Origin: Sphaerodactylus townsendi
Taxonomy: Eukaryota
Length of the DNA: 64,000 nucleotides
NCBI RefSeq assembly: GCF_021028975.2
Contig: NC_059425.1
Coordinates: 112,530,001 to 112,594,000 of the forward strand
Direction: 5' to 3'
Part shown: positions 9,968-43,076 of the stretch, in pieces
Position numbering within the stretch: the first letter of the stretch is position 1
How the letters are laid out: each line of letters starts with the position of its first letter
Position numbers and translations under genes: made by a program
Notes under the pieces: generated by a model
Told to the model about the DNA's origin: nothing
Databases searched by the model: none
What the model saw: only the letters and a program-made list of their open reading frames with translations

Positions 9968-11460
9968 TAAAATAGTCAAATTTTAACAAAAATACACTGA
10001 GGACAAATTAATAAGAAACACTGGAGAATATTTAGAGAAATGTGTAACATTCTTTAGCCCTTAGATGTTTTTTCAATGTTGCAACATAGAGCCATATATG
10101 TGCTTAACTGATATTTTATAAGGCTAAAGATTTTAAGCTGTGCTACAGCTATGTAGGAATGGCATTGGTAATAGATATACCCAGGTCACACTAAGTTCTG
10201 ACCAGCTGGATCTTTTCTGAAGACAACCGCATTCTGCCATTTTATGCATAGAAGTGAAACTACTCCACAGTCCTTTTTTCTAGCAAATTCCTCTTAAAGG
10301 CTTCCCCCTGACATAGTTTCTGAACAGTCCTTTGACTTTTAAATTGCCTGCACAGCTAGAGCAGAAAGAAGCGCTGGTTTTATTTCTTTGCCACCAATCC
10401 AAAGAAAGTTATTCTTGCCCAGGGACCATAGAGATCAACAGTAACAACAGCTGTAGCTCACTTAAGTCTGTTGTGATTTCACTGGGGCTTTAACCTCATT
10501 GATTCTGCATTCTAGATTAGGCTCTTATGCAAATTATTAGTGCTTTGGTAGTCCAACAATTATTGTAGTTGATTAAAAAGTTTTCCCACACCGGCATATT
10601 TTTTATGAGGAAAAAAGATAATCACATACTATATAGCAGGGATCTACAACAGGTGGAAACCAGTAGCTCACCAGCTGCTCAAGAGTAGCTTGTGCATCCT
10701 CCAGAAGACCCAGGAAAAGATTGTAAAAATATCTACTCTAGTATCTAAACAAACACATTTATTTTTCATAGGATTTTTTTCTGTTCTGTTTAGCTGATAG
10801 GCTATTTTTTAAATGCTCTTCCAAGTCCATGTTCTGTTTCTACAGAAGACAGAAAACATGACTGGGGTAGCAAGCAGTTTGAATTGCTTTTTATTGCTCA
10901 GAAGTAGCTGTGATTTAAAAAAAAAGTTGATAATCCCTGTTGTACATGTAAGGCAGCTGCCCTTAGAGATGCAGGTGAACACCTAGTATAGTCAGAATAA
11001 GGTTTCTAAGACATGTGGAGCAATGTCATGTAAAACTATGTCATAATATTTCTTAATTGTTCATGAGGTGTCTTGACATGTGTTTAAAAGGGATGGGTTT
11101 AAGGACAGTTGTTTGGAATGTCATTATAATTCTTATGGAATCATGTGGTATCAGAGGGCTTTGTATGTAAGGGCGTTAAATGCAGTAATGTTGCTTCCAA
11201 CTCATGACAACCCTACGAATCAAAGTCCTCCAAAATGTGCTGTCATTCACAGCCTTGGGCAGGTTTTGCAAACTGGGCGCTGTGGCTTTTTAAAAATAGA
11301 ATCAGAGGGCTTTAGGGAGCCCGTAAAAGAATGTGTCTTGATTTCAAATTTTACTTTGAGCTGAAATAGTTCTGACAGGCTTGCAGGTCTGATGTATCTA
11401 GTGGATTAAAAAAAATAAAATGCTGGTTTATTAATTAAAATGGTTTTCTTATGTGTGCAG

Positions 11461-12805
11461 AAAAAAGTTTCTTCCTTCCATGGAAGAATCTGCAGAAGGT
11501 GAAACTGCACCAGTTATGCCAGAGATGAATCATGTATGCAACAGTGACCCACAAACTGCTTTAATTGCGTTTGAAACGGAAAAACAAAATAACAGGAAGA
11601 ACTTGATGGGCATCAACAGGTGTCGGAAGGACAGTGCTCGTGAGGGTGCTGAGAAAACAGACTTTTTGCCATGGCAAAGGAACGAAGCTCCTCCTGTGCC
11701 CCCGAGAAGCACTTCTCGGCATCTGACAAGCTCTCTCTCTGCAGCTGTCCAACTTTCTGAGGCATTAGCAAAAGATCCAGAGCACAGAAACCATTGTCAA
11801 ACCCGGCGGAATCATGATAGCAATACTTTTAATAATCCAACTGTTTCAAAGCTATGTGATGCTCCAGAGCCACCAGCAAATGAATGGAAATCTGTTTGTG
11901 GTCTGGCACTGGTTACTTCGGTGCCCATGGAAAAAAGAGATCTGTCCACTGAATGCAAGCTGTCGGTGGGATTTTGTCATAACACCTGGACCTGCAAACC
12001 AAGCAAAACTGGAAATTTCACTAAGAATGACTCTGCCCCACACTCTGTCCAAAAGAGTTGTTCTGATGGAAATATGATGGACTCAAAGCAACATCCTGAA
12101 TACCAAGGCAGTGGGTGTTACTCCACTGACTTTTACACACCTGTGTGTGACACACTGGGTGACTCTGGATATGGAACTGCAAAGACTCAACGGAATGAAA
12201 CACTGGAAGCAAAGATTGATGAGTTTAACAGAACTGTGTTTCATACGGATCAAGGCCAAAAGTGTCCACCCAAGAGCCAAATGCTACCAAGACCATCTGG
12301 TAATCCTACCTCCCATGATGTACTGCAGGACTGTTTGAAGAACAGGACAGAAGCAAACAAAGATGTTACAGATGCTTTGGATCCCAGACTGTCTTTGAGA
12401 ATGAAAGAGAAACCCAACCATTTCAGCAAAAACACCAAAGGAACAGGACAACAAAAACAAGTTAATGGACTTCTGAGTAGCTATCAAAATATGCTTCAGG
12501 AGCATGATTGGAAGCCAAGTAATTTGTCTGGTCGCCCACGATCAGCTGATTCAAGATCAAACTATGGTGTTGTTGAAAAGCTTTTGAAGAACTATGAAAA
12601 ATCAACCTCTTTGTGCAATTCAAAGTTTCACAAAGATAAGTGGGTACAGTCAAACTCCACATTTGCTGGTGGCCGCTGTGAGATGGTGGGCCATTATTTT
12701 GAAATGCTCCAGACAGACCTAGGAAAGCAGGAGCTGCAGAAGAATTCAACCAGGCATGTTGGGCTTTATGCCAAACAAGACAGAGAGAAGCAGAAATTTC
12801 CTGAG
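11461..12805 (+). CDS. KIAA0408: KIAA0408 coding exon 4 (large exon; APPVPPRSTS, LEAKIDEFNRTVF, RPRSADSRSNYGVVEKLL)
   Basis: Acceptor tgtgcag, phase 2 completes the Arg codon from exon 3; donor GAG|GTAAGA; lies inside the 454-aa ORF. Confidence 0.93.
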
Positions 12806-12851
12806 GTAAGAATTTAAAATTAACGACTTTATTTTTTTTTAATAAATCAGA

Positions 12852-21167: not shown

Positions 21168-22420
21168 CAGAGGTGGGATCCAACCAGTTCTCACCACTTC
21201 TCTAGAAGTGGTTACTAATTTTTTCTGAGTTCCTAGAAGGGGTTACTAAAGCAACCTCCCTGCCCAATAGGGACTGGAGATGCGTGTGTGCGGCGGCGCC
21301 ACTGTTTGAATCCCACCATAAGAACATAAGAACAAGCCAGCTGGATCAGACCAAAGTCCATCTAGTCCAGCTCTCTGCTACTCGCAGTGGCCCATCAGGT
21401 GCCTTTGGGAGCTCACATGTAGGATGTGAACGCAATGGCCTTCTGCGGCTGTTGCTCCCGATCACCTCATCTTGTTAAGGCATTTGCAATCTCAGATCAG
21501 TGAGACTCAAGATTGGTAGCCATTACAACTCGACTTCTCCTCCATGGGCAATCTGTCCAAGCCCCTTTTATAGCTATCCAGGTTAGTGGCCATCACCACC
21601 TCCTGTGGCAGCATATTCCAAACACCAATCACACGTTGCGTGAAGAAGTGTTTCCTTTTATTAGTCCTAATTCTTCCCCCCAGCATTTTCAATGAATGCC
21701 CCTTGGTTCTAGTATTGTGAGAAAGAGAGAAAAATTTCTCTCTGTCAACATTTTCTACCCCATGCATAATTTTGTAGACTTCAATCATATCCCCCCTCAG
21801 CCAGCCTCCTCTCCAAACTAAAGAGTCCCAAACGCTGCAGCCTCTCCTGCTAGGGAAGGTGCTCCAGTCCCTCAATCATCCTTGTTGCCCTTCTCTGCAC
21901 TTTTTTCTTCTATCTCCTCAATATCCTTTTTTGAGATGCGGCAATTAGAACTGGACACAGTACTCTAAGTGCAGTCAGCATTCACTGCTTTTATATAAGG
22001 GCATGACAATCCTTGCAGTTTTATTATCAATTCCTTTCCTAATGATCCCCTACATAGAGTTTGCCTTTTTCACAGCTGCCATGCATTGAGTTGACATTCC
22101 CATGGAACTATCAACTAAGACGCCTAAATCCCTTTCCTGGTCTGTGACTGATAGCACTGACCCCTGTAGCGTGTATGTGAAGTTTGGATTTTTTGCCCCT
22201 ATGTGCATCACTTTACATTTTGCTACATTGAACTGCATTTGCCATTTCTGAGCCCATTCACCTAATTTATCAAGGTCCGCTTGGAGCTCTTCGCAATCCT
22301 TTGTGGTTCTCACCACCCTACATAATTTGGTATCATCTGCAAACTTGGCCACCACGCTACCCACCCCTACTTCCAGGTCATTTATGAACGTGTTATTAAA
22401 AATTTTGGATCCCACCACTG
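21168..22420. mobile_element. hAT MITE carrying a nested CR1 fragment
   Basis: TIRs CAGAGGTGGGATCCAA...TTGGATCCCACCACTG; TSD atttcgcc/gtttcgcc (7/8). Confidence 0.8.
21317..22388 (-). mobile_element. CR1 LINE, 5'-truncated (RT C-terminus and 3' tail)
   Basis: ORFs KFADDTKL...WQMQFNVAKCKVMHIG and LRGDMIEVYKIMHG...FFTQRV; tail (TTCTTATG)2. Confidence 0.92.
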
Positions 22421-24169
22421 GTTTCGCCCCTTTGCAATTTTACACAGCATAGTGATAGAAGGGCCAAAGTTTATTACTCAGGAAAAATGCTGTTCATGCA
22501 GAAGAATCCAAGGCTCAGTCCCTGAAATCATACTGCAGGATGGAGAAGCCTTTTCGCTGGAGCTCTAAAGGGTAGGGTAGCCAAATTCAGCTTGGGAAAT
22601 TACTGTAAATTTGGAGATGGAGCCAAGGGACAGTGGGGTTTGGTAAGAAGTTTAGTGGGGATGAATTCATGCTATAGCAACCATTTCCTCCAGAGAAACC
22701 AGTCTGAAACCAGTCTGAAAATCAATTTTAATTCCAGGAGACCTCTAGGTCCCACCTGAATACTGGCAATCCTGCTGACAGTCAAAATGGCTGCTGTACT
22801 GGAATCAATGGATCAATAGTTGGTTTTTGTATAAAACACATTCATAAATCCAGTTATTCTATTATTGCTTCCTAATGAAAGTATGTTAACTGGTAGAATA
22901 CCTGAAAGTGAAATGTACATGTGCTTGTGTGATACATGCTAAATGTTATCGGAAAATTATAGCATCTAAAAACATCTGTACAACATCTGGGAGACAGCCC
23001 TCTTCTTTCAGATGCATTTTGCTACTCTCACCCTCAAGACAATGCCATACCATTTCTTCAGACACTGCTTTCCCCCTTCTTTATCACTACCATTTATGAT
23101 TCGTAAAGCACTTAAAAATTGCTTTTCAAGAACTGTTATTCTGTGGGGTAGGGTTCTAGAGGGATTTGCACATAGAACAAATGCCACAGCTAAGAAGCAG
23201 ACAATGTGTCCTTCTCAGGACTATTCAGGACTATTCCCTGTTCACTGTATTACCGGTACATTTTTCATTGAGCCTGAAAAAATATATGCATGTTCTTGAA
23301 AAGTGATAAGAGATGAGTCTGGAAATATGTAATATTTTTTGCAAAATATTCAAAGTTATAACAATAATTTCCATACATAAGAACCATACTAAAACTGATT
23401 TTTCTTTTTTCTTTTTTTGGTATCCTGACATGAGGTTAAGATATGGTTGCATTTTTTTCTGTCAAGGCTGTGACAGTTGTGTAGCACACAAAAATGCATC
23501 AGGTTATTGACAGTGACTCAAATATCTTTACCTGCTGAATGTTCTCATGTCAATCAACTGTTAAAGGATACAGATATCCTATTGCAAACATTGTCAATTG
23601 TTGACCATTAGACAGAGGTACCTGAATTAGAGGGAACATATACTGTACTCTTGTTTGCCTGAAGGGGGCAATCCATTTGACCTGTCTGGAAACCCCTTTT
23701 GCGGGTAGAGGTGTGGTGCTCTTAAGACTCCCACTCCCCCCTAGATGAAATAAACACATAACAACTTTGTGTGGATAAAATATTGACCATAGCCAGAGGT
23801 TTATTGACAGAGAGTAGAAGGAAGCAAATGGCGCAGCATGGGGAGGGGGTGATCCCTCCTCTGGGCAGCCCGAGTGCTGTCCCCCAGAGTCCACCGAATT
23901 CCTTGAGCCCACCTGCTGAATGAATTGACCGTAAGGCAATATTAGAGTGGGCGATCCCAGGTGGGCGATGTGCCCCTGTCTGGTGACCCTCTCTAAATGC
24001 TGCTAGGGGCGCAAGCCATCTTAGCCCCACCAGGCATTTAACCATCTGCTTGCTCCACCCCGACCTCTTATGGAGGCTCCCCCAGCTTCCTCTTTCCAGT
24101 GGATCACACACCCCATGCGCAACCTGCCATGTGGGACCCCCCATATGGCTCCTGCCAAATGCTTCCTAA

Positions 24170-24729
24170 TCTCCCAGCCAATCACACAGCTCTGCCCTCA
24201 AGCTATGCAGCCACAGGTCCATACCCCAATGAAATAAGTATACCCCATCCGTTCTAAACAGAGCCTCCAGCCTAAAAGAAATGTCATGGTGTGGCACTCC
24301 TTGACCCCAAAAGTCCTGTACAAAATGTGTTACCACCCGGCAAGTCTACGATCCACCCAAGTAGGGTCCGTGGCACCACTCCAAGAGCATCTCTCCAGCA
24401 GGTACGACCAAAAAAGCCTTGCTCCCGGTAACAGCTGGTGAATAAAGTCCAAGTCCACCAAGATCGTCTGAAGCAGGTGAACACTCCACACCGATGTGAT
24501 GTCATTTTCCCCAAGTTGAACCACACTAACGCATGAGGTGGGCCGTGGGCTTCCAGCTCGTCTCGAAGGAGAGGAATAAGGTCATGCCAGAGCATGCCTC
24601 TTTTCCCAAACCAGTAGATTTGTGCCCGGTGGTGGAGGCCAAGGTCCCGACCCCAGCCTAATGAAGCTACGTATCTAGCTGCCCAAAGCACAATGCTGTG
24701 TCCCATGACCCAAACACTTCGCCTGGCAC
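24170..24729 (-). pseudogene. Ngaro copy 1 SGNH/GDSL hydrolase domain
   Basis: Block I VWVMGHSIV, block II GKRGM, block III QLGEND, block V-like RTDGVY. Confidence 0.8.
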
Positions 24730-24799
24730 CTGAAAAAACTGACAGAAAAGTTAGCCGAGGTAACACGTTTTACCCCCTCAGTGCTGCATTAGTGGCCTA

Positions 24800-25660
24800 A
24801 TTTAGGTCTTGTAGGATGTAGAACACCAACATCTGACATCCATGACCCTGTTCACTGGTACCCCCATTGCAGCTAAGGAAGAAGCCGTCCCTATCCTAAA
24901 GGAATGTAGGCCAAAAGCAGAGACCGGGAGATTCAGGGCAGACAGGCAGAGCTGCAAGAGGGCGGCTAGTAGTTACCTTGATAAGCACGTACCATTGGCA
25001 TGCAGGAACAAGCCCCCCCAATTTTGGGTGGATGGCCAGGTATGCTGCCTTGTCCCCTACTGGGCAAGGACCCGGAAGTGTGGAGGCCTGAATAGAAATG
25101 TGTGTGCCCCTCACCCTCTGGTCTGTCTTGGACTGCCTCAGATGAGGCAGTGCCTGTCTTGGACTGCCTCAGACGAATGTAAATGGTGTGGCCCACAATG
25201 TTAACATCATTTATTGACAGGGGTCTGATGCTGTGGTCAGCCCAGGAGGCAGAGACCAATTTGCTACTGTGAAATGCCCCCCAAAAGGCCAAGCTGAAGG
25301 CCGCTATGAGTAAGATTGTTTCAAATTGCGAAGTGCAAATCTGGGGCAGTGTGCTAGCTAGCCGGCCAGAAGTTCCCATGAAATGGGGTGGCGTCTGTCC
25401 TGAGGACGCGGTGCGGGATCTTGCCCACCCTTTGACAGCCTGTTCACGTGGGCAAATCTATGGGATCTGCAAGGCCAGAGGCCTTGCAACAAAAGGATAC
25501 TGCTGCCAAGTGCAGGTGCATGGTCTTGGCTGCTTGACCTTGAGTGCAAAGGTGGGTGAGGTAACTGGCTTGTTTCCCTTGAGACCTGTGGAATGCTAGG
25601 AATGATCTAATGGCCCCCTGATAAGCTTGCTGCATTGCAGGGGCAACTTAGGCCAGCACT
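24800..25660 (-). pseudogene. Ngaro copy 1 tyrosine recombinase (frameshifted)
   Basis: AAFSLAFWGAFHSSKLV, RQSKT, CPV, and GLHSFRIGTAS read on minus near 24880-24912. Confidence 0.85.
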
Positions 25661-25670
25661 CCACCCAAGA

Positions 25671-26140
25671 TTACTCGCTCCCAAGATCCCACAGCTTCTG
25701 TGGGAAGGGCTCCAGCTCCGGGCAAGCCTCTGGTGCCAGCTCCTGAAATCTCTGCATCTGGAAACGTGAGAGGGCATCTGCTATCCCATTGTTGATCCCT
25801 GGAATATGATGGGCCACGGAAGAAATGTTATTAACCAGTGATACCACCACAAACCTCTGTACTAAACGCATCATCCGCTCAGAGCGAGAGGATTGACAGT
25901 TGATAATCCTGACCGCAGCCTGATAGTCGCACCAGAAGACCACCCTGCTGTTGGCAAACTGCTGTCGCTATAAGTAGAGGGCTACCAGGATAGGAAAAAA
26001 CTCTAGGAAGGTAAATTCCTTGAGGAGGCCAGTCGTTTTCCACCCCTGGGACCAGCGCTCAGCGTACCATTAACCCTTGAAGTAAACCCCAAATCCAGGC
26101 TTCCTGATGCGTCAGAGTGGATCTGAAGGGAGGTTTCCAA
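25671..26140 (-). pseudogene. Ngaro copy 1 RNase H
   Basis: HSDASGS, FWCDYQAAV, HIPGINNGIADALSRFQ. Confidence 0.88.
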
Positions 26141-26229
26141 GTCAGGCGGGTCTGCCATAGAGAGACCCCATTGAAGTGCCTGAAAAACTTCTGCCAAACC
26201 GGCAGATCCGCTTTTATGCCCTTTGTCAG

Positions 26230-27250
26230 CTATATGTAATGGTGAGGGGCAGTGACCCCTCGGGTAGCATGTGCCAACCTGGCGCAAAAGGGCCTCCGAG
26301 GTGAGACAACACAGCATGCAAAACTGAGGTGGACTAATAACACTTGGATGCCCTTTAATACACATTTCATTTTCCCATCCAGGTGGCCTAACAATTCATA
26401 GGGCTTGGAGAGCTTATTAGGAGGAAGGCTGGATGTGCTTCTCACTGTGTCCAGAGTGATCCCTAGAAAAACCAAGGAGGTGGAGGGCCCCTCCATCTTT
26501 TCACTGGCCAATGGGACTCTGAGTTCAGAAGTTAGTGCCTGAAAGGCAGCAAGCCTAAGGTGGCATTGTTGCGTACCTGCTTGGCCCACAAAAAGAAAAT
26601 CATCCAAGTAATGTGTGATGTGGGGGCTGGCTGACTGGCCCTTGGTTGCCCATTCCAGCAATGAACTAAAAGATTCGAAGGCTGCTACTGAGCAGCCCAT
26701 GGGCATGGCTTTATCCATGAACCACTGTCCCCTAAACTTGATGCCCAGTAGACAGAAGTCCTCAGGGTGAATGGGAAGTAGATGAAAAGCAGACTGGATG
26801 TCACACTTGGCAAACAGCAACCCAGGGCCGCATGACTGGATCAAATTAATGGCATGGTCGAGGGACGCGTAGCGCACCGAACTAAGCCCTTCGTCTATAA
26901 AATCATTCACGGATGACCGTTTGGGATAGGATAGGTGGTGAATTAAGCAGAATTCCCCAGGAGCCTTCTTAGGCACTACCCCCAGAGGGAAGACCCAAAG
27001 GTTAAGGGGGGGGGCAGAAAAAGGGCCAGCCATGCGGCCAGCTGCAACTTCTTTACCCAGCTTGGCTGCCACCACCTCAGGCAAAACGTGAGCCGATTTG
27101 AGATTATTGTAGTCAGTGGGCACACAGGGGGCAGTGTATGGGACTCAGAAACCCTGTAAAAAACCTCCCATAGGAATTTGGCTGCTGTCCGGTTGGGATA
27201 TGAGGCCAATAGGGGAGCCAGAATGGGCAACTTGATTGGGGTGCTGGCGA
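26230..27250 (-). pseudogene. Ngaro copy 1 reverse transcriptase
   Basis: PLGVVPKK..GEFCLIHHLSYP, KCDIQSAF, MPMGCS, HYLDDFL in the 297-aa ORF. Confidence 0.92.
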
Positions 27251-27419
27251 GGCACTCCCAATGACCAGGCTCTGTGGAGTTATGATGAGGTAGAGGTTGT
27301 GGAGGGGTCCGACCCTCCCCCTCTAAGAGCTGGGTTGACCAGAGGTCGGGCTCCTCGAAAGGGCTGTGGCTTCCAGCTCCTAGGGCAGGCAAACCTGACA
27401 TGAGGACTAGCAAGAATCG

Positions 27420-28746
27420 ACGAAAAGGAATCTTCTGTATCTCACCTCTGGCATTTACACTGATTGTACTCTCAACATTTGAGGTCCTTCCCCCCTTCCA
27501 ATTGGGGTCCTTCCCCCTGAAAATTGGCCCTTTTCTTGTACTGGAAACCAAGGGCAGGTGAAGGGCTGGACAAACATTGTCCAGGCCTCATTATTTATAA
27601 TGTCCCAGTGGGTATCACTGCGACAAGATGTAGATCTCCTAAATTCCTCATTGTAATTTATGGCAGCACTATCACCCCCAATGAGGCGGGCCCTACCCAC
27701 ATTGCATTGATGGGTAGCTAACTGCCAGGCCCTGAGCGGGTGAGCCACAGAAATCAATGCCATATGTTCTCCATAACCTACAAACCAATTGTCAAATGTC
27801 CTCTCCACCCATTTTGACTTGCTTGATGATGTGGAAGAACCTGGAAGGATAACTTTGAAAACGTCCATATAGTACCCATTAAGGGCCCTCTCCTTTACCT
27901 TTTTTGATAGGTGCCGACCCGGTGGGGCCTTAGCTGGTTCACTACCATGAAAGGTGAGGGGGGAGGAGATCCCCTTCAGGGAAACCCAGGCTACTTCCCT
28001 GCATTTGCTAAGGCCCTGACGGAGTGAAGGAATGGCTGCCCTGACCTCCCAGAATGTCCATTCCCATGAGGAGAATTGTCATCTGAGGAGTACTCACTGG
28101 ACGACGAAGATGAGGTGGAGCAGCAGCTTGAAGACCAGCATAAGACTTCCCGCGCTCTTTCCCCTGCTTTCTGACCGCAGCTGGGGTCCAGCTTCCCATG
28201 TCTCCTCCTCGATACCACCAGGACTGCTTCCTTCGACCTGTGTGAAAGTATCCTTTTCCATTCTCTGCTGACTCTTCTTACTGACTTCAGAGGCCGGTAA
28301 GAGGCAGCAAAATGGCGATGTTTTGTTGTAAAGTATTAGCCAGCTGTGTGAATATTTTGGCTAAGTTCTGAAAAATAAGGGAACTCATTTCCGACATTGC
28401 AGCCACCGGATTAGTACCACCTCTACTTGTAGTCACAGTGGGTACCCTTACCTTGTGTCACTAGATTGGGGAGCTGCCTGCTGCAGCTTCATGGACCACC
28501 CCCTTAGAGGGGCCAGCAAGGTCAGGTTGGGTTTTGCCCCACTTTGTGCTGGCGATCCATACATGCTGACCTGTGTGTGTTATCCCTGCCTGGTGACCTG
28601 CCTCCTACAGCAGCTTAGAGGCACGCCGCCATGTTCATGTCAGCCTGTGAGGGTGCTACAGACTGCACTCGAGTTTTGGGTGCCTTGGTGACTGGCACTT
28701 TGCCCAAGCTAGGAGCTTTGCGCTTGCTGCTCCTTTGAGGTGCCAT
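27420..28746 (-). pseudogene. Ngaro copy 1 gag-like ORF (interrupted)
   Basis: Starts MAPQRSSKRKAPS, homologous to copy 2 MAPAKGDKRKTPS; C-terminal ERTFDNW...YNEEFR...HWDIINNEAW; in-frame stops. Confidence 0.7.
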
Positions 28747-29999
28747 TAGTGTGTAAAAGATGACACTTGGAAAAATTCCTAGGGATAACTATAAAATTCC
28801 CTAGTGCTGCACTGTAGCCAATCCTGTACCCTGAGAACCAATGTGTGAAGAAAAACCTCTAACCAACTGCTCAGAGAAGGCCAAGGTGAAGGAAACAAAT
28901 GGGAGAGGATAAAAAGCAACATTAGAAAGTGGCACCCTTGTTTCACTCCCTCTAATCAATCCCTTGAACGAACTCAAACTCCTCCCGCGAGCTGAGCCAC
29001 GCCCTGGCCCCTTTGTCCTACGCGGTGGCTCCGCCCGGTGGCCTTGCTGAAGAAGCATGGGGTGAGGGGGAAGGCTTGAACTACCCACCCTCTGCTCCTC
29101 AGGTGGGGGAGTAGGGGATCAAACCCAGTCCTTCAGAATGGAATCCACCTTCACTTCCTAACCATCATACCACTGGCTGGCTTCAAACCTTTGCAGTGAA
29201 ACAAAACTGTGTGGGAGGATGCACCCCCCCCTCCTGCAGATACGCCGTAGAAGAAAGGGAGGTGGCGGTGTGAGGCAAGCCCCCTCTGTCTGCAATGCCA
29301 TTTGCCCACTCCGCCGCCTCTGTCTCAAACTCTGGAACCCCAGCCGAGGCAGGCACCTCTTCTGCTGCTGCCTTCACGCTTCTCCTAGTGGCCGCCTAAT
29401 GACCCCCTGACGCCCTCCATTCCTCCCCCCGATCACCTACCAAACTCTCGCAGGTCCTTACAGTCTGGCATCTTGGGCTCAAGTAGGCCCAGCCTGCCCT
29501 GTTGCGATGACGCCTTTTATAGGCTCAGCCTGCCCTGTTGCGATGATGTGTTTTGCGCGCGCCATCGCAGAGAGGGGAGTGCTTCAATCGGGATCCCGTG
29601 GTTTGCTAAACAGGATCCCATATTACCAACCTTGCTCCTTAGTAGGCGCCTAAGCCTGGCTGGGCTTTTCCACAACGTGCCACGGTTTAGCTCCTGCCAT
29701 GCTTTTTCAGTTGGATTAGATAGCTTAAAAATAATCAGAACAATGTCACTGTGCCTAACAACAGCTAAAGCATAAGACTCACCACTGATGCTCCCTTCGC
29801 TGTATATAATCCAAATTATGACTCTCCTGTGGTTATCTTTAAATTGGTCAATGGCAAAGTTAGGTAAGTTTTTCCCATGCCAAGGAATGTGCATCTCTGT
29901 AGTTCCCCTGACTTTCAGCATTTAGATAACCACAGGGATTTGAATTCTAAAGATAAATAGGAACATCATTGGCTGTACTGATTTTAGATTTATACTGCT

Positions 30000-35002: not shown

Positions 35003-35659
35003 TTTTACTGACTGGAGAAAAAAAATAAAAATTTGGACATTTAAATGCCTAGTATTTTTACAAGGAGGCTTGGACAGTGATAGGTCTGTCCTGCTAGCCT
35101 GACCAGAAGGGAAGACAGCCGGGCTGGGAGAAGTTCTGCAATGCTGTAAGAGAGGCTGGGCATACCCCAGCCACCCTTTCCCTCAAATGGTGGCTGCAAG
35201 GGAAAGGAGGCCAGTGAGTGAAGAGGCATGGGAGCAGAGGCAGAAGCCTGAGCCCAGTGCCACCTCCTCCAGCTCAAACAGCATGTCCAGTATTTTTGTT
35301 GACACCATCTGGCAACCAGCTCCCACATGGCTTCCTTATGGGTCTTTTTGGCATATAAATACCAATACATCTCCTCTCCTCTCTCAAAACATCCTTACTG
35401 TGCACATTTCCCCTCATCTTTTTGTCTATTGTAGATGGGAAGTGGCATCATGTGTTATTAAGCACTTATTCCCCATTTCTACTTCAATTCCACTGATAAT
35501 CAGATAAAAATTTCACCCACCATCCCCCCAGTGGGTGATGTGACTTTTCCAGATGGGAGGCTTTCCCATTTCAGTGGGAAATGGTGTGAGGACTTTTAAA
35601 TGTATGAAATAAAGAAAAATGTTGAAAGGGCTGAAAACTGAAAACAATAAAGACAGCTG

Positions 35660-36240
35660 TGAATCACCCACCGGCTGCGGTTGCCTCTTGGGGTGGGGGA
35701 GGTGGAGCATGCCAAGGTGACTGCTTCCGCCCAACCAAGGGTGGAAGCAAAGCCCGCGGCATGTTGGGCCAGGGCTGACATCACCAGAGGGGAGGGCTGA
35801 CGGAACCTTTAAAGGAGTCAGCCCTTCTTTGTGCCGGCCATGTGCTCTGGCAGGCTGGCGATTTGCCCACCCACCTCTCCCTGGACTTTTATTACGGTGC
35901 TGCATGTTTTTTCTGTCATAGCCATCGGCGGTGGCGCATGGGTATTGATCTGGAAATGCCAACTGCGGCAAGAGGCAACAGCCCTACCGAACCGGCAAAC
36001 GGGGAACACCTCTTGCCAGGAGCGTCCGCCCGGCAGAGCCCCTCAGCAGAGCGAAGCCCAATACAGGGCATCCGCCCGGGGGAGCTTCACTAGGAAGCAG
36101 ACAGGCCAGATCAAGACCCATGCTACGCCTCACGCTTCTGTTTTGTTTGGTTAATAAATGGCTATGGCCAAATGTTTATCCCAGCAAAGAGTCTCGTGTG
36201 GTTTTTGGGAGAGGATCCACCCAGGTGGTTCCCACCCTCA
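35660..36240 (+). mobile_element. Solo Ngaro-type terminal repeat unit (A-spacer-B), different subfamily
   Basis: TATA-like cctttaaagg...gccggcc; B-start ggcggtggcgcatggg..tgatc and end ggttaataaa..ggctatggcc..gtctcgtgtgg match the 3' regions of both full copies in opposite orientation. Confidence 0.7.
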
Positions 36241-36859
36241 GAAGGCAAGTATTATCATTGAGATAAGTCAATGAACATGGTTATTGTTTTCTGTTCATCA
36301 CAGAACTGAATTCTTCATGTTAGCCATTTAAAAGGCAGCTATTGCGTGTAGAGGTGTGGCCCTTCATGCTCAGTGACCCGATACACCGAATAATACACAA
36401 GACAGTATATATAGTGTGGGTAAGCAAATGGCCATAGCCAAAGAATTTATTAACCGAAAATACAGGAAGGCAAATTGGCGCAGCATGGGAGGTGATACAA
36501 GCATCTGGGCAGCCCGAGTGCTGTTCCCCAGAGGATGACTAGTTCCTACAGCCCGCCTGCTGGAGGAATCTAGCCAAGCGGAAGATTGGAGTGGGACATT
36601 CCAGACCGGGCGGCGCTCCATGACCGGGCCCCATCTCCCATCCTTCACTAGGGGCGCTTAAGCTCCTTAGGTCACCGCTGGGCATTCCAACCGTGGGCTT
36701 CAGAAACACCTAACTTCTTACCTCCTAAGGAGGTGTAATAAACAGGGGAGCTCTCCCAGCTTCCCTGCCAGCGGATCACCTCCCATGCGCAACCCGCCAC
36801 AGAGCCGGGCCGAAGGGAATCCCTTCCCCCGCCTCCCCGCCAAAAAAGCCTCCCATATG

Positions 36860-37478
36860 CCTTCACAGCCAATCACACAATGCTGTTCTAAGGCTATGCA
36901 ACCACAAACTCCGTGCCCTCTGAGGCTTATAAATGCAACCCCCCATCCTGCCTGTACAGTGCTTCCACCTTAGGGCGCAATGTCCCGATGTGAAACCTCC
37001 TGCCCCCCCAAAAACCCTGAATCAAAACGCGACATCGTCCGGCAGATCCTTGGTCTGGCCTCCATTCAATTGCAGTGAAGGGTTCAAGGCACCTCTCCAT
37101 ACTGCCTTCCCCAACAAGTGAGAGACCAGAAGATCGAAGTTTCCGGCAGCAGGTGGTGAATGGAGTCCAAGTCCGCTAACATCGACTGTAACAGCTGCAC
37201 GCTTCTTCACTGCAGGGGATGTCAGCTTCTCTCCGAAGCCGCAACACCCAGTGCGCGCGGGGGGCTTGAAAACTTCCAGCAGCTTGGTCTGGAAGGATGG
37301 GGAGAAGGTCCTGCCAATGCATGCCTCTTCTTCCGGATCCACCGTGAAGCCTGGACTGGTGGTGTAAGGCTCCAGGTCCCGACTCCCATCCTGAAGAGGC
37401 TGGGCGTGGTTTGCCGCTCCAGGAAGACGCATGCTGTGGGCCAACCACCCAAAATGACTCTCTGGTGTCCTAAAGAAG
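36860..37478 (-). pseudogene. Ngaro copy 2 SGNH hydrolase domain
   Basis: WVVGHS recoverable after removing two 1-nt homopolymer insertions; GRRGMHWQDLLP; colinear with copy 1. Confidence 0.75.
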
Positions 37479-37559
37479 CTGGAGACAAAATTGCAGGTTA
37501 GGTGGGGCCACACATGGCGCAGGAACCCTATTGATGCGCAAACGCTCTGATGTGCACGC

Positions 37560-38450
37560 GCTTTTGTAGGCCGATGACCTTTTCTAACAGCTTCCACGCC
37601 CATGACTCTGCCGGGTTGGGGCCTCAGCCCCGGCTATAGAGTGGACGCTGCTCCGATCCGAAAGGAATGGAGCCCATAGGATGTCGCGGGGAGGTGCAGG
37701 GCCGATAGGCAGAGCCTCAGCACCGCTGCCAGTTGGTAGCGTGAGAGGCGAGTCCCATCAATATGGACAAATAAAGGGGCTCCCCCCTTCGGGCGGACTG
37801 CCAGGTAAGATGCCATGTCCCTCACCGGGCAAGGGCCAGGGGCTATGGAGGCCTGCATGGAGATGCAGGTGCCCCTGGCCTGCTGATCCGTCTTGGAATG
37901 CCGCAGGTGGACGTATATAGTGCGCTCATGGATCCGGACATCCTTGAGTGACAGAGGTCTGTCGCTAGTACCCTCCCTAGACGCTGAGACTATTTCCCCG
38001 CTTCGGAAAGCCCCCAAAAATGCCAAACTAAAGGCTGCTTTAAAGAGGCAAGTCTCAAAAGAGGACGTGCACACTCGGGGTAATGTGGCGGCTATCTGAG
38101 TGAGCAAGTTCAGAGAAATCGGGAGGCGCCCGTCCCTGACCTTAGGGCGCCATCCGGCTCCACCCCCTTTATGGCCTGCCTAACCAGGAAGGATCCCGTG
38201 GGGTCCGCAATCCCCGAAGCCTGTTGCAGTAGAAGGATACCGCTGCCAAAACCGGTGTGTCCGCGATGGTTTTGGGAGACCGCCCGCGCTGTTTGTAAAC
38301 AACCAAGGTACATATGGAGAGTATAAAGACCAATTCGGTAACCCAGGAGCCCCCCGCCCCTTTGAGACTGTTAAGCGCGGGAATCTGGGAAGAAAGCATG
38401 GATTGCGGAAAATTCCCTGATAGGCCTGCCGCTTGCTGGAGCCAGCGAAG
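37560..38450 (-). pseudogene. Ngaro copy 2 tyrosine recombinase
   Basis: 157-aa ORF 37634-38107 with catalytic R (GAFRSGE), K (SKTD) and HxxR (HSFRIG). Confidence 0.92.
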
Positions 38451-38479
38451 TTCAGTGGGAATCTCCGGTGATGATCGTA

Positions 38480-40230
38480 TCCTCTCCCAAGGGCCCAGGA
38501 GCTCCTATGGAAAGGGTGCCGATCCGAGGATGCTCCAGGGGCTAGTGCAGGCTGAATCGCCCATCTGGAACCTGGAGATGAGCGCTCTGCTATGTCGCTT
38601 CCACGCCTGGAATGTGCTGAGCCACAAAGCGGAAATGTTATTGATCAAAGACACCTACCACCAACTTCCTGGACAAGCCGATAACCCGCTCAGAGCCAGA
38701 TGATTATTTTGCCGATTGATCACTTTGGACCACTGCTTGGTTGTCACTAATTACCAGAAGATTCGATCACTTCTGCGGTTGGCAAAAGCTGGGCTGGCCA
38801 CAGGTATAAAGCCCACCACTATCGGAAAAAATTCTGCAGGAATGGTAAGGTTCCTTTTCCCAGGCCCCTCGGCCTAACACCCAGCTCTGACGGCCACCGT
38901 TGGGCGCACCTACGTTGCTTCCTCTGAAGTTCCCAGACCCCTGTATTCGAAAGCCCCATTGTGCCTCTAAGCATCGGAATGCACTTGTAAAGTGGACCTC
39001 CAGGGTGAACCCGCTGCCTCCCGCCAGTTGGTAGGGAAACCCCGCTAAAATGTGGGCAAGGAACTCCTGCCAGACGGCCATGTCGCCCTTAATGCCCCCC
39101 TGGTCAGCCGTGATGTGGTGGTGGGGTGGTCACCCTCTTAGTATGCGTGTGCCAGGCGGGCGCAAAATGGTTCAAGCACAGGCGCCACCACCCGGCTACA
39201 CCATGCAAAATTCAGGTGGGCCTTAACAACTTCTGGATATCTCCTCAGAGTGCATTTGGATTTCCCTTTGCAGCTGAAGTAATAAGTCCTTAATGGCCAC
39301 TCTTCAACTTATCTGGTGGGAGGCTGGATGTGCCCTGTAGCGTGTTCAATGTGCATCCCCAGGAAATTAAGGTAAAGTGCGAGGGGCCCTCGGGTTTTTC
39401 CTCCGCCAGCCAGTGGTGGTACACTCCAGTTCCGCTGCCAATGCCTGAAAGTCGTGAAGCCTTCCTTGGTGGCATTATTGCAGGGTGCCCGGGCCTCCCC
39501 AACTATAAGCGAAGTCGCTCTTAAGCTAATGTGCGTGTGATGAATGGACTGGCAAACCGCCCCTTTGCTGCCCATTCCAAAAAAAGGAACTGAAGGCCTC
39601 AAAAGCTGCACAGGCTGCATGTGAGCAGCCCATGGGCATGGCTTCTTTATCAACGCAACCACTGCCCCTGGAATTCTAACAATGCCCAGCAGGCAAAAAA
39701 AAAGTCATTTGGGTGAATGGGGAGTAACCGGAAGGCTGGACTGTATACGTCGACTTCTGCTACAGGAGGGCCCCCCGCCCGCAGGCCCCTGATCAGATTG
39801 GTGGGCATGGTCAAACGATGCAGAGTGACCGGATTTTGCAGTAAGATCCTGCTCTATGTGGTCGTTTACTGAGGAGCCCCTCGTAGGGATAGAATGGTGG
39901 ATTAAGCGGAAACTCTCCTTGGGCCTTTTAGGCACCACACCCAAGGGGGAAAACCCTCAGGTTTGGGAGCCGGGGGAAGGGAAGGGCCAGCCATACGGCC
40001 AGCAGCCACTTCTTTCAAGCAAGTTTTGCTTCTACCACTAGGGGCATATCCCGGGCAGGACTTAAGGCTGCCGCGAGTCAGTTGCCACCCTAGGGCCAGT
40101 GTGTAAGGGATGTGGAAAGCCCTGAGAAAAACCCTTCCCAGAGGAATTTGGCCACCGGCCGGTTGGGGTAGCCCGAAGAAGCAGGACTGTGCGCAGCGGG
40201 AGTTTGACTGGGGACACGCCAGGGTTCCCC
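38480..40230 (-). pseudogene. Ngaro copy 2 RT and RNase H (frameshifted in assembly)
   Basis: Fragments LKEVAAGRMAGP, GVVPKR..FRLIHH, KPCPWAAH (shifted AMPMGCS), TLQGTSSLPPDKL, DMAVWQEFL; colinear with copy 1. Confidence 0.85.
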
Positions 40231-40329
40231 AGGACCCAAGTACTCCCAATCTAGGATGTGGCTGGGTTGGGCGGAGTGGCCCGCCCCTCCTCTGGGGAGT
40301 TTGGGCTACTTGAGGGCCGGCTCCACTAA

Positions 40330-41849
40330 AGCGGCTTTTGCCTCTTGTGCAAGTTGTCTTAGTAGTGGGGGCCTAGGCAAACCTCGCAGGAGTGCTTCCC
40401 AAATTCTTACATTTTGCCCTGTTGCACCTGCCTGGGTTAAACTCCCAGCAAATCCTGGCGTATGAACCCTCCTCCGGAAATTAATGGGCCGCTTCTTAAA
40501 AGCGAGTGGCCTTGGGGGCGGCAAATGGCTCAGAACTTAACATCGCCCCATATGCTTCCTGGATTTAACTTTGTCCCATCGAAAGCATCACTGTATCATC
40601 CTGATGCATCTTGGCGAAAACTCCTCGTCAGAATCCTCAGAGCCGCCGCGAGAGTCCCCCCCTATAAGGCGAAAGCCCGTGAGCATCGCTACACTGGTGG
40701 GTCGTGAAAGGTGCCAGGCCCTTAGCGGTAAGTTAAGCTTCAAAGTCCAATGCCAGTGTATTCCCCAAAACCCAGTGTAAATTCAGTTCATTATCAGAAG
40801 GTCCTCTCCACCCGCTTAACCTTGGGGCCGGTGGAGGAGGATCCCGTGACACTCTGAAGAGGGCGCGCTTGGGCGGATAAATTTAAAAATATCCTCCACA
40901 TAATACTCAAGGAGGGCCCTATCCTTCAGCTTTCTTACGGGTGAGGTGTGTTTTTTCCTGGGGATGCTTTGGTGGGGCTTGGCACTCACTAAAGGGGACT
41001 GGTGGGGGTGGGGCTCCCTCATGGGAAGCCCAGGCTAAGCGGTCCCTGCATCAGCTTGGTAGGCCTGGGGAAGTGATGGGATGGCTTCGCCGTGATCCTC
41101 CCAAAATGTTCCTTCCTCGAGGAGAGAGTCCTCATCCTAGAGAGTACTCACTCAGGAGGAAGACGATGGAGAACGCCACCGAGATGCATGCCTCGGGCGG
41201 TAGATCCCTTTCCTTGGCTTCCTGCGCTGGCGGTCCCGGCTGGACCCTTCGCCCTCTTCCGCCGATGATGGGCTCGCGGCCTCCTCCTCTTCTTCCTGTG
41301 AAAAGGCCTCCTCCCCCTGGTCCCCTGCTGGCTGAGACGGGCCTGCCGATGTAGTTGCAAAAGAGGCCACCGCCCCATTGGCTGAAGAGCCCCTGGCCAA
41401 CCTCGCAAATGTGTTCGCCAGGTCATTGAAAATTTGGGCACTGAGATCTGAAACCCCAGGTTGGATCCCAGGGGGGGGGGGGCTGGTGCTGCTCCCTGCA
41501 CCGCCTGTCTATTCACCGGGGTTGTTGCCATCCGCCTCCGGGCTTCTGAAGTTCTAGTGGCTGCCCCTTGAGAGCGCTTGGGCCGGGCAACATGAGATGA
41601 AGAACTGGGTTGCCCAGCCCTGGCCCCTGCTGGGGAATCTAGGTCGCGCCATGCAGGCGCCTTCCCCGCCGTTGCACGCCGGGGCCTGCTAGTTACAGGG
41701 GGCTCCCTAGGAGCTCCCTGGGAGGGGCCCGGGTGTGCTCTGCTGGAACCCGACCCACGAGAGGCTGTAACTCTCACTTTGGGGGCTTGTTTAGCTCGGC
41801 CCTGGTCCTCGCTCGGGGTTTTTCTTTTATCTCCCTTAGCGGGTGCCAT
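40330..41849 (-). pseudogene. Ngaro copy 2 gag-like ORF (frameshifted in assembly)
   Basis: ATG at 41849 MAPAKGDKRK; later LKDRALLEYYVEDIFKFIRP. Confidence 0.7.
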
Positions 41850-42839
41850 GATGAATCGAACAGCGGAGTAATGAGAGTAATGAGTTGTAAAACTGTAGAA
41901 CTGTAATGGGAATAGTGTGGTGACCCCCTACCACTGGGAGAAACAACCCAAGCGTCGAATAGCTACTCAGCCAGCTGGACAGGAATGGAAATGGAGATCC
42001 CCAAAACAAGGCAAAAACGTTAGTAAGTAGCTGAGATTACTGTAAAGAGTGTGCGGCCAACCCCTGTTGCCCTTGGCCCGCCAACTCTAACTCGTGGACT
42101 GTGGGGTTTTCCTCTTCCCCCAGCCGACCTGATCAAAACAACAAACCGGAGGAGGGGGTTGGGCCAGAGAGAGTTCTGAGAGGACTGTGACCGGCCTGAA
42201 GCCACCCCACCTGCTCAATGGGGGTGGGGGGTGGGGCAATGATTAAACCCCCCCCATACCAAGTCTGCCACCCACCTGAGGAGTGGGGAATCAACCCTTT
42301 GCACAGGGATAAAAGACACCGCTCCCCCGCGGCAACGTTAAATGGGGGGGAGGGGGTTGGTGAGCAAAATGGGGGGGTGCCATGTGCAGTCCCAGCCGCC
42401 ATGCTTGCTGGGTTCCCCCCCCCCACGCAGGCCTGGTGCCATGGCCGCCTGTTCTCGGCAGGCTCCATGACCGCTGCGGAGGTCCTGCGGTGAGAAGGGG
42501 GGGCAGAAGGCCCGTCGCCCCCCCACGGCACCGCGGCCGTTCCGGTTCCCACCCGCCGCGGAGGTCCCGCTGCGGAGATCCCGCATTAAGAAATGGGGGG
42601 GGGAGCAAGGAGGCCCGTCGCCCCTCCAAGGGCATCGCGGTGTTGCTGATAAGAGGAAGGGGGGGCAGAACGCCCGCCGCCCCCGCTAAGGCGTCGCAGC
42701 CGGTCCCGGACCTAAGGGCTTCGCTCCCTCCCCCCACCATACCCAAACAGATCCTCGCTCTCTTCAAAATCCCTCGGCGTTCCTGCTGCGAAAATCCCTC
42801 GGCGTTCCTGCTGCGGAGTGGGGCCGGCGACCACGAGGC

Positions 42840-43076
42840 AGGGCCTTTTATAGGCCCAGCCTCTCGCCCCCTCCGCAGGCGTGCTCTCGCGTATCGCGAG
42901 AGCACGCCTCCAATCAGCTGGGCCCCCCCTGCGCTTGTGCAGGGTGAGCCCGAGCTGCCCGGCCCTCTGCGCATGCGCGGGACGGCCGCGCATGCGCAAA
43001 CGGGCCTGGAGCCTTTGCCGGGCCCCTCGCCCTCCCGCAATGGCGGCCGCGTTTTAGTCGCGGCCGCGCTTTATCA
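42840..43076 (-). promoter_or_regulatory. CpG-island Pol II promoter in the 5' repeat of Ngaro copy 2
   Basis: On minus in order: YY1-like GCCGCCATT, two NRF1-like GCGCATGCGC, inverted CCAAT (ATTGG), TCTCGCG palindrome, TATAAAAG at about 42845-42852. Confidence 0.7.

Follow-up and report, generated by a model that had tools for sequence, protein, structure and literature searches.

Conserved splice signals suggest that the SGNH hydrolase of lizard Ngaro retrotransposons is expressed by splicing as a Gag fusion

Spliced messages are well known from retroviral env and from copia, which has a spliced gag, and Goodwin and Poulter are said to have described introns in some fungal DIRS elements in 2004. 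Tyrosine recombinase (YR) retrotransposons have late open reading frames (ORFs) that lack a start codon, and for the YR of Ngaro the published guess at its expression is a frameshift, i.e., the view of Poulter and Butler (2015) as quoted in an excerpt of PMC13003380. The closest described systems are Ngaro-like elements with an SGNH hydrolase ORF, such as DIRS-53_XT and DIRS-54_XT of Xenopus (PMC9210276, excerpt), which have the same order of gag, reverse transcriptase/RNase H (RT/RH), YR and SGNH as the element described here. SGNH is presented in that excerpt as a fourth overlapping ORF without proven function, described in amphibians, and the words “splic” and “intron” have no match in the main text of the paper. 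Similar enzymes have been reported in other retroelements. Bdelloid Vesta elements carry a GDSL esterase as ORF3 (PMC5408684, excerpt), and the ORF1p of ZfL2-1, a LINE of the CR1 clade, consists of a coiled coil, an arginine-rich motif and an SGNH esterase encoded in one contiguous ORF; the basic esterase, which follows the arginine-rich motif, binds anionic liposomes (PMC3905857, excerpt).

We have analyzed a window of 64,000 nucleotides (the whole stretch of DNA considered here) from the lizard Sphaerodactylus townsendi. It contains one Ngaro element at about 23715–29520 of the minus strand (copy 1), with gag, RT/RH, YR, SGNH and one B repeat, and a second, more decayed one at about 36340–43070 (copy 2). 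The features that matter for the argument are the following, in window coordinates.

Copy 1:
28866..29440, minus: putative intron of the leader (with its donor at 29440 or at 29436, CTAAT 28925-28921, AG 28868-28867)
28446..28454, minus: first-proposed donor AAG/GTAAG, present here, not common to other copies
28098..28746, minus: coding part of the gag exon, 649 nt from the ATG at 28746 up to the donor; decayed, with a stop as early as codon 44
28092..28098, minus: conserved mid-gag 5′ splice site CCA/GTGAGT, exon end 28098, phase 1
27313..28097, minus: conserved C-terminal half of gag, which the predicted splice would take out, with a CCCH-like zinc finger
25680..27400, minus: RT/RNase H ORF, broken
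25757..25775, minus: candidate acceptor for YR within the ADALSRFQ motif of RNase H (AG 25759-25758), phase 1 with respect to the YR frame
24778..25827, minus: tyrosine recombinase ORF, broken
24729..24754, minus: 3′ splice site before SGNH, with a CTAAC branch point, a pyrimidine tract and two AGs
24165..24729, minus: exon of the SGNH hydrolase, some 190 codons long and lacking an ATG of its own
23715..24127, minus: B repeat, 71% identical to B1 of loci L042 and L049 over 24127-23769
Copy 2:
41975..42025, minus: leader-intron acceptor, TACTAAC...CCAG
41146..41152, minus: homologous gag donor, A/GTGAGT
37469..37501, minus: homologous acceptor, CTAAC...TTTAG/G

The RT of copy 1 was recognized above the Pfam cut-off (RVT_1), and tblastn of an intact relative covered 27365-25680, while the zinc finger of gag was below the cut-off. 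The YR ORF follows and overlaps RT/RH, RNase H running straight into it with apparently no space for a methyltransferase domain, and the corresponding ORF of L042 gave XerD-like homologs and PF00589. Copy 1 is dead: its gag is interrupted by stops, and RT, YR and the hydrolase are frameshifted (the last near 24524 and near 24345). The genome of the same species (1.8 Gb) holds many relatives, some of them with intact ORFs. The intact members have the split direct repeats (A1...B1 A2 B2) of Ngaro-like elements, 99% identical in L042 and L049 and 80–98% in L037 and L038. Neither A2 nor B2 was detected in copy 1, where the A repeat was not recognized with the L042 or L049 probes and the end of the B repeat near 23715 was set by eye. 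Two other loci (L091 and L100) end, like copy 1 at 23715, at the B repeat without A2-B2, a loss that would be expected from recombination between B1 and B2. Intact ORFs are found in many Ngaro lineages of this genome that share no more than 60–90% identity, i.e., a high diversity at low copy number. The window also contains the 3′ part of an element from a third Ngaro family (35650-36250, plus strand, 82% to L066 and L067) that faces the end of copy 2, a 460-codon open frame without Pfam match (11435-12815, plus), probably a host exon, and fragments resembling the reverse transcriptase of what we take to be a CR1 LINE (21507-22439, minus).

Introns of the U2 type have a GT donor, a YTRAY branch point, a pyrimidine tract and a YAG, with matching phase on both sides, and all these signals are present in the element. 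Reading the minus strand of copy 1, CTAAC (24754-24750) is followed by the pyrimidine tract and by CAG (24732-24730), after which the exon starts at 24729 with GT GCC AGG CGA AGT GTT TGG, entering the hydrolase frame in phase 1. A second YAG (AG 24740-24739) lies 9 nt upstream of this acceptor (AG 24731-24730) and is also in phase 1. The YR stop, located by eye at 24780-24778, is 48 nt upstream of the acceptor, and the SGNH frame itself has a stop 40 nt upstream of it. The first in-frame ATG is found inside block I (WVMGHS), where relatives mostly have V or I, so the hydrolase of copy 1 has no usable start. The branch point, tract, CAG and phase 1 claimed in the earlier note, together with the missing ATG, could thus all be confirmed. 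A strict acceptor pattern (CTAAC, at least 80% pyrimidine, CAGG) occurs only once in both strands of the window and a looser one five times; as raw counts, they make a single site little proof, and the real evidence is conservation.

The conservation proposed in the same note was found among the relatives in the S. townsendi genome. We surveyed 75 Ngaro loci, and block I provided an anchor in 72 of them (all but L007, L023 and copy 2). A YAG with a tract was present in 68 of the 72, and in 66 it was in phase 1; over all the anchored loci, 112 of 125 acceptor-like AGs were in phase 1. The six loci with no phase-1 acceptor were L017, L031, L066, L067, L069 and L091. As the loci are interrelated and were found via the hydrolase, these counts overstate independence. 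The loci form 20 groups at 80% identity and nine at 72%, and a phase-1 acceptor was counted by eye in 18 and in all nine of these, respectively. In several families (the L078 group, L085/L090, L068/L102 and L104) only the upstream AG of the tandem pair is in phase, indicating that this is the more general site; the gene model P0019 uses the downstream one. At the family level, the SGNH acceptor is real and under selection, as judged from these alignments.

A candidate partner for this acceptor is found in the middle of gag. When 15 long copies were aligned, two donor sites scored in 13 copies each, the leader donor and A/GTGAGT in mid-gag. The latter (28098/28097 in copy 1) follows a Lys/Arg-rich patch and a Ser run, and it is in phase 1, counted from the ATG, in all five copies with an intact gag. 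The predicted intron from this donor to the CAG acceptor spans 3368 nt. In a wider survey of 76 loci (58 with a gag C-terminal match, 55 anchored), GTRAG was found at this place in 49 of the 55, every one of them GTGAGT, although, GTRAG having been demanded by the search, only positions +3 and +6 were free to vary. Two of the six misses were mis-anchored and the rest were mutated or belonged to a distant family. The encoded tripeptides differ (SEY 26, GES 16, SEL 4, SES 2, GEY 1), the Ser codons ahead of the site include each of the four TCN, and the codon background of the gag C-terminal half is mixed (GAG 184 vs. GAA 115; AGT 61 vs. AGC 45). Constant nucleotides under changing residues are what a splice signal predicts. 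In addition, the pattern Ser-Ser-Ser-R/GTGAGT had 634 matches in the genome against 122 for the reversed control. The donor first proposed, AAG/GTAAG at 28452/28451, does exist 295 nt from the gag ATG. However, it is private to copy 1: it is missing from the 14 other aligned sequences (of these, L050 is unaligned in the gag part), and it falls outside all 39 other matches to the gag region of copy 1. We have therefore rejected it as the donor of the element in favor of 28098/28097. The string AAGGTAAG occurs six times in the 64-kb window.

Other candidate splice sites were found along the element. A TATAAAA box (29521-29515) lies upstream of the putative leader intron, and an intron of this kind, with branch point and acceptor 112–145 nt before the gag ATG, was recognized in seven of 21 copies scanned, eight of the 21 having given no donor or ATG anchor. 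The equivalent region of copy 2 (41975-42745, minus) has a branch point of the TACTAAC type. The leader intron is retained in the genomic copies examined, which implies that the RNA has to leave the nucleus and be copied in unspliced form. For YR, the Gln codon of the ADALSRxQ motif is CAG in 38 of the 39 cases with Gln, compared with a background of 66%, a comparison to be read with the overlap of reading frames at this site in mind. Another candidate located 51 nt upstream is CAT instead of CAG in copy 1, and CAG in only 12 of 18 sequences. The gene model P0176, frog YR models and locus L127 concern the same part of the element (25757-25810 of the window, minus), the models entering the YR frame at CAGs of the RNase H end. 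The mid-gag donor thus probably feeds the recombinase too. For RT, no acceptor was found at the strict tract threshold; a phase-1 YAG with a poor tract, seen by eye about 113–116 nt before the RT anchor, near the end of gag, in 11 of 20 representatives (L042 among them), is a possible RT acceptor and only a lead.

Gene models and homologs provide a further line of evidence. HMMER recovered 1493 homologs of the hydrolase, whereas an earlier word-index search for longer SGNH homologs had found none. Among the best 150 of the 1493, 75 had an N-terminal extension of at least 60 amino acids without any YR, RT or gag C-terminal match, rich in Ser, Ala, Gly, Arg and Pro and resembling in make-up the N-terminal half of gag; the rest were 43 with short extensions, 18 of more than 700 amino acids and 14 with pieces of YR, RT or the gag C-terminus. 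We looked up 30 homologs picked for their gag-like N-termini (26 from RefSeq, two from GenBank, one from UniRef and one from Logan), which came from lizards, frogs and three molluscs. In several homologs (P0030, P0012, P0032, P0010 and P0023) the joint is immediately preceded by a basic patch and a Ser or acidic run. The extensions from other species gave no clear sequence match to the gag of S. townsendi. In this genome, the RefSeq model P0019 maps at 100%, joining A/GTGAGTA to CTAAT...CAG/GT in an internally deleted copy, and in P0176 the homologous gag donor is connected with a CAG at the end of RNase H, leading into YR. Similar fusion models are found in other lizards and in frogs. The proteins P0254 (YR, from Xenopus tropicalis) and P0135 (SGNH) share 77 identical residues and diverge at the junction, and P0196 and P0154 behave in the same way at 67%. 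P0070 is a fusion of 394 amino acids on a Logan contig of 1677 bases, too short to contain the intron, from a run whose type is unrecorded. RefSeq models usually rest on introns seen in RNA-seq, and they are nonetheless predictions. P0022, another model of this genome, combines the upstream AG with a weak, non-conserved donor, indicating that models can be wrong, and with the 14 homologs that join SGNH to YR, RT or gag C-terminal pieces, that they are not uniform. P0008, P0025 and P0038 seem to be host proteins; they are long and contain one SGNH domain of the Ngaro type or more, possibly through exonization at the SGNH acceptor or through domestication.

A search of the S. townsendi genome with two junction patterns (eight matches and one match) found no spliced genomic copy. 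The eight matches of one pattern were six Gypsy RTs, one unspliced Ngaro and one old hydrolase remnant, and the single match of the other equaled its control count. L091 (contig C4, 115012400-115020500), a short derivative made of part of the left repeat, the hydrolase exon and a B repeat, was rejected as a spliced copy, since its joint is upstream of the TATA box and 4–5 nt before the AG, i.e., it is a deletion. Contigs of unrecorded kind from four of five runs were compared with L042, and the joint between gag donor and acceptor was absent among the 15 joints listed (of 15 + 236), which is evidence neither way.

Turning to the enzyme itself, S11, G44, N74, D163 and H166 are kept in at least 90% of 51 hydrolase sequences, and all three SGNH motif patterns are found in 108 of the 150 best homologs. 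Pfam Lipase_GDSL_2 was below the cut-off for the hydrolase of L042 (P0001), above it for P0135, and gave no match to the broken hydrolase of copy 1; a PDB sequence search was uninformative. The predicted structure of P0001 has a pLDDT of 97.9 and its top Foldseek matches are SGNH/GDSL enzymes, so that according to the model this protein folds as an SGNH enzyme. The computed pI of the domain is 10.95. The predicted fusion product would combine a basic, low-complexity N-terminus with a basic putative esterase with intact catalytic residues.

Other ways of expressing the hydrolase have to be weighed against splicing. A ribosomal frameshift or stop read-through from YR, with the pyrimidine-rich stretch as linker, would agree with the overlap of all reading frames given in the excerpt of PMC9210276, and in 24 of the 63 loci with a YR anchor the SGNH frame is indeed open back into the YR end, including L042, L046 and L049, which have near-identical repeats or intact ORFs. 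However, in-frame stops interrupt it in the other 39 (L012, L024 and L026, 98–99% alike, carry two), all three frame classes occur (31, 22 and 10 loci), a 1-nt indel in the tract separates class 0 from class 1 within one family, and the length of the spacer after the YR stop varies freely. Together, the variation in frame and the stops rule out this route as a general one; the spacer appears to behave as non-coding sequence, and we consider the explanation highly improbable. The opposite outcome of which the earlier note had warned, a consensus with an in-frame ATG or a YR read-through and no conserved acceptor, is not what the family presents, there being no ATG and no consistent read-through. 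The same short distance between YR and SGNH (in most loci the YR stop is only about 20–65 nt upstream of the acceptor) would suit a ribosome that reinitiates past the YR stop or uses a non-AUG codon there, leaving the mid-gag donor to serve YR only, as it does in P0176. This we regard as very unlikely, given that reinitiation explains neither P0019 nor a branch point, tract and phase-1 YAG conserved across clusters.

Use of the acceptor from the leader donor, or from AAG/GTAAG, would give the leader-hydrolase product that had also been suggested for this locus. The leader donor is as frequent as the mid-gag one in the aligned copies, and in another family it is AG/GTAAG. Yet the copies examined show no phase-1 start ahead of it, the tandem ATG/GT site found there in eight of 15 copies is in phase 0, and SGNH brings no ATG of its own; the AAG/GTAAG alternative suffers from being restricted to copy 1. 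Moreover, this route leaves the conservation of the mid-gag donor unexplained, and we find it unlikely; a leader-hydrolase product was not borne out. It is barely credible that the motifs are due to chance or to shared ancestry without selection, the fusion models being gene-finder artefacts on repeats. The recurrence of the loose acceptor pattern in the window and the donor of P0022 are in keeping with such a view, but the motifs persist across hydrolases that are only 42–73% identical to P0001 while the neighboring spacer and the synonymous sites vary, and the phase bias and the invariant donor refute the chance reading.

We thus favor, with a probability of roughly 80%, that the site before the SGNH hydrolase acts as a functional U2 3′ splice site by which the domain is expressed as a spliced Gag-SGNH fusion. 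Transcription would start after the TATA box at the left end, and the leader intron could then be removed. The unspliced RNA would be the genome, to be packaged and to yield the full ORF1/Gag, in keeping with the introns retained in the copies examined. Splicing of the phase-1 mid-gag donor to the phase-1 SGNH acceptor would remove the C-terminal half of gag, RT/RH and YR, and the product would be an N-terminal Gag segment of about 200–340 amino acids fused to SGNH. The same donor joined to the acceptor at the RNase H end would probably give a Gag(N)-YR fusion, a weaker case than the SGNH one. The removal of RT/RH and YR to make a Gag-hydrolase, as first proposed for this locus, therefore agrees with the signals, phases and conservation in the family, but copy 1 itself cannot make the product. 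By analogy with the ORF1p of ZfL2-1, the Gag(N)-SGNH protein would most likely tie the RNA particle of the element to anionic membranes. With less assurance, we are inclined to think that animal Ngaro elements (in lizards, frogs and perhaps molluscs) use one mid-gag donor and separate acceptors for recombinase and esterase (perhaps also for RT), making Gag(N) fusions rather than frameshift products, and that Gag-esterase, as a membrane-targeting module, arose in convergence with the ORF1p of CR1/L2 LINEs. If so, many “uncharacterized” RefSeq genes of lizards and frogs would be spliced Ngaro messages, so that a group of genes now annotated as belonging to the host would be products of transposon splicing. 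The exact junctions given here are directly testable in existing lizard and frog RNA-seq, and the probable real hydrolase-carrying protein is defined, making its function assayable.

Our literature search, with two key reviews, supplements and Repbase notes outside its scope, found no description of splicing to a Ngaro hydrolase or recombinase; the element is of a known kind, and its expression by splicing is probably undescribed. In contrast to DIRS-53_XT and DIRS-54_XT, the element described here resides in a lizard, and its SGNH domain seems to be an exon fused to half of Gag. The resemblance to ZfL2-1 lies in the Arg-rich patch that precedes a basic SGNH domain with intact catalytic residues (pI 10.95 here and 10.8 in the excerpt of PMC3905857). 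However, the fusion is contained in a contiguous ORF in that non-LTR element and would be built by splicing here. PDB 4c1b (ZfL2-1) ranked 30 in the Foldseek search of P0001; as it was not the best fold match, common descent would be speculative. The −1 overlap between YR and the end of RT/RH agrees with the frameshift model of Ngaro (PMC13003380, excerpt), whereas the gene models get into the YR frame through a splice at the gag donor. The spliced ORF3/env of LTR retrotransposons and retroviruses (PMC5408684, excerpt) is alike in its plan of one donor, a downstream acceptor and a packaged unspliced RNA. In contrast, the element described here has neither LTR nor integrase, its donor lies in the middle of gag, so that about 200–340 Gag residues would be fused to the product, and the recombinase seems to be served as well.
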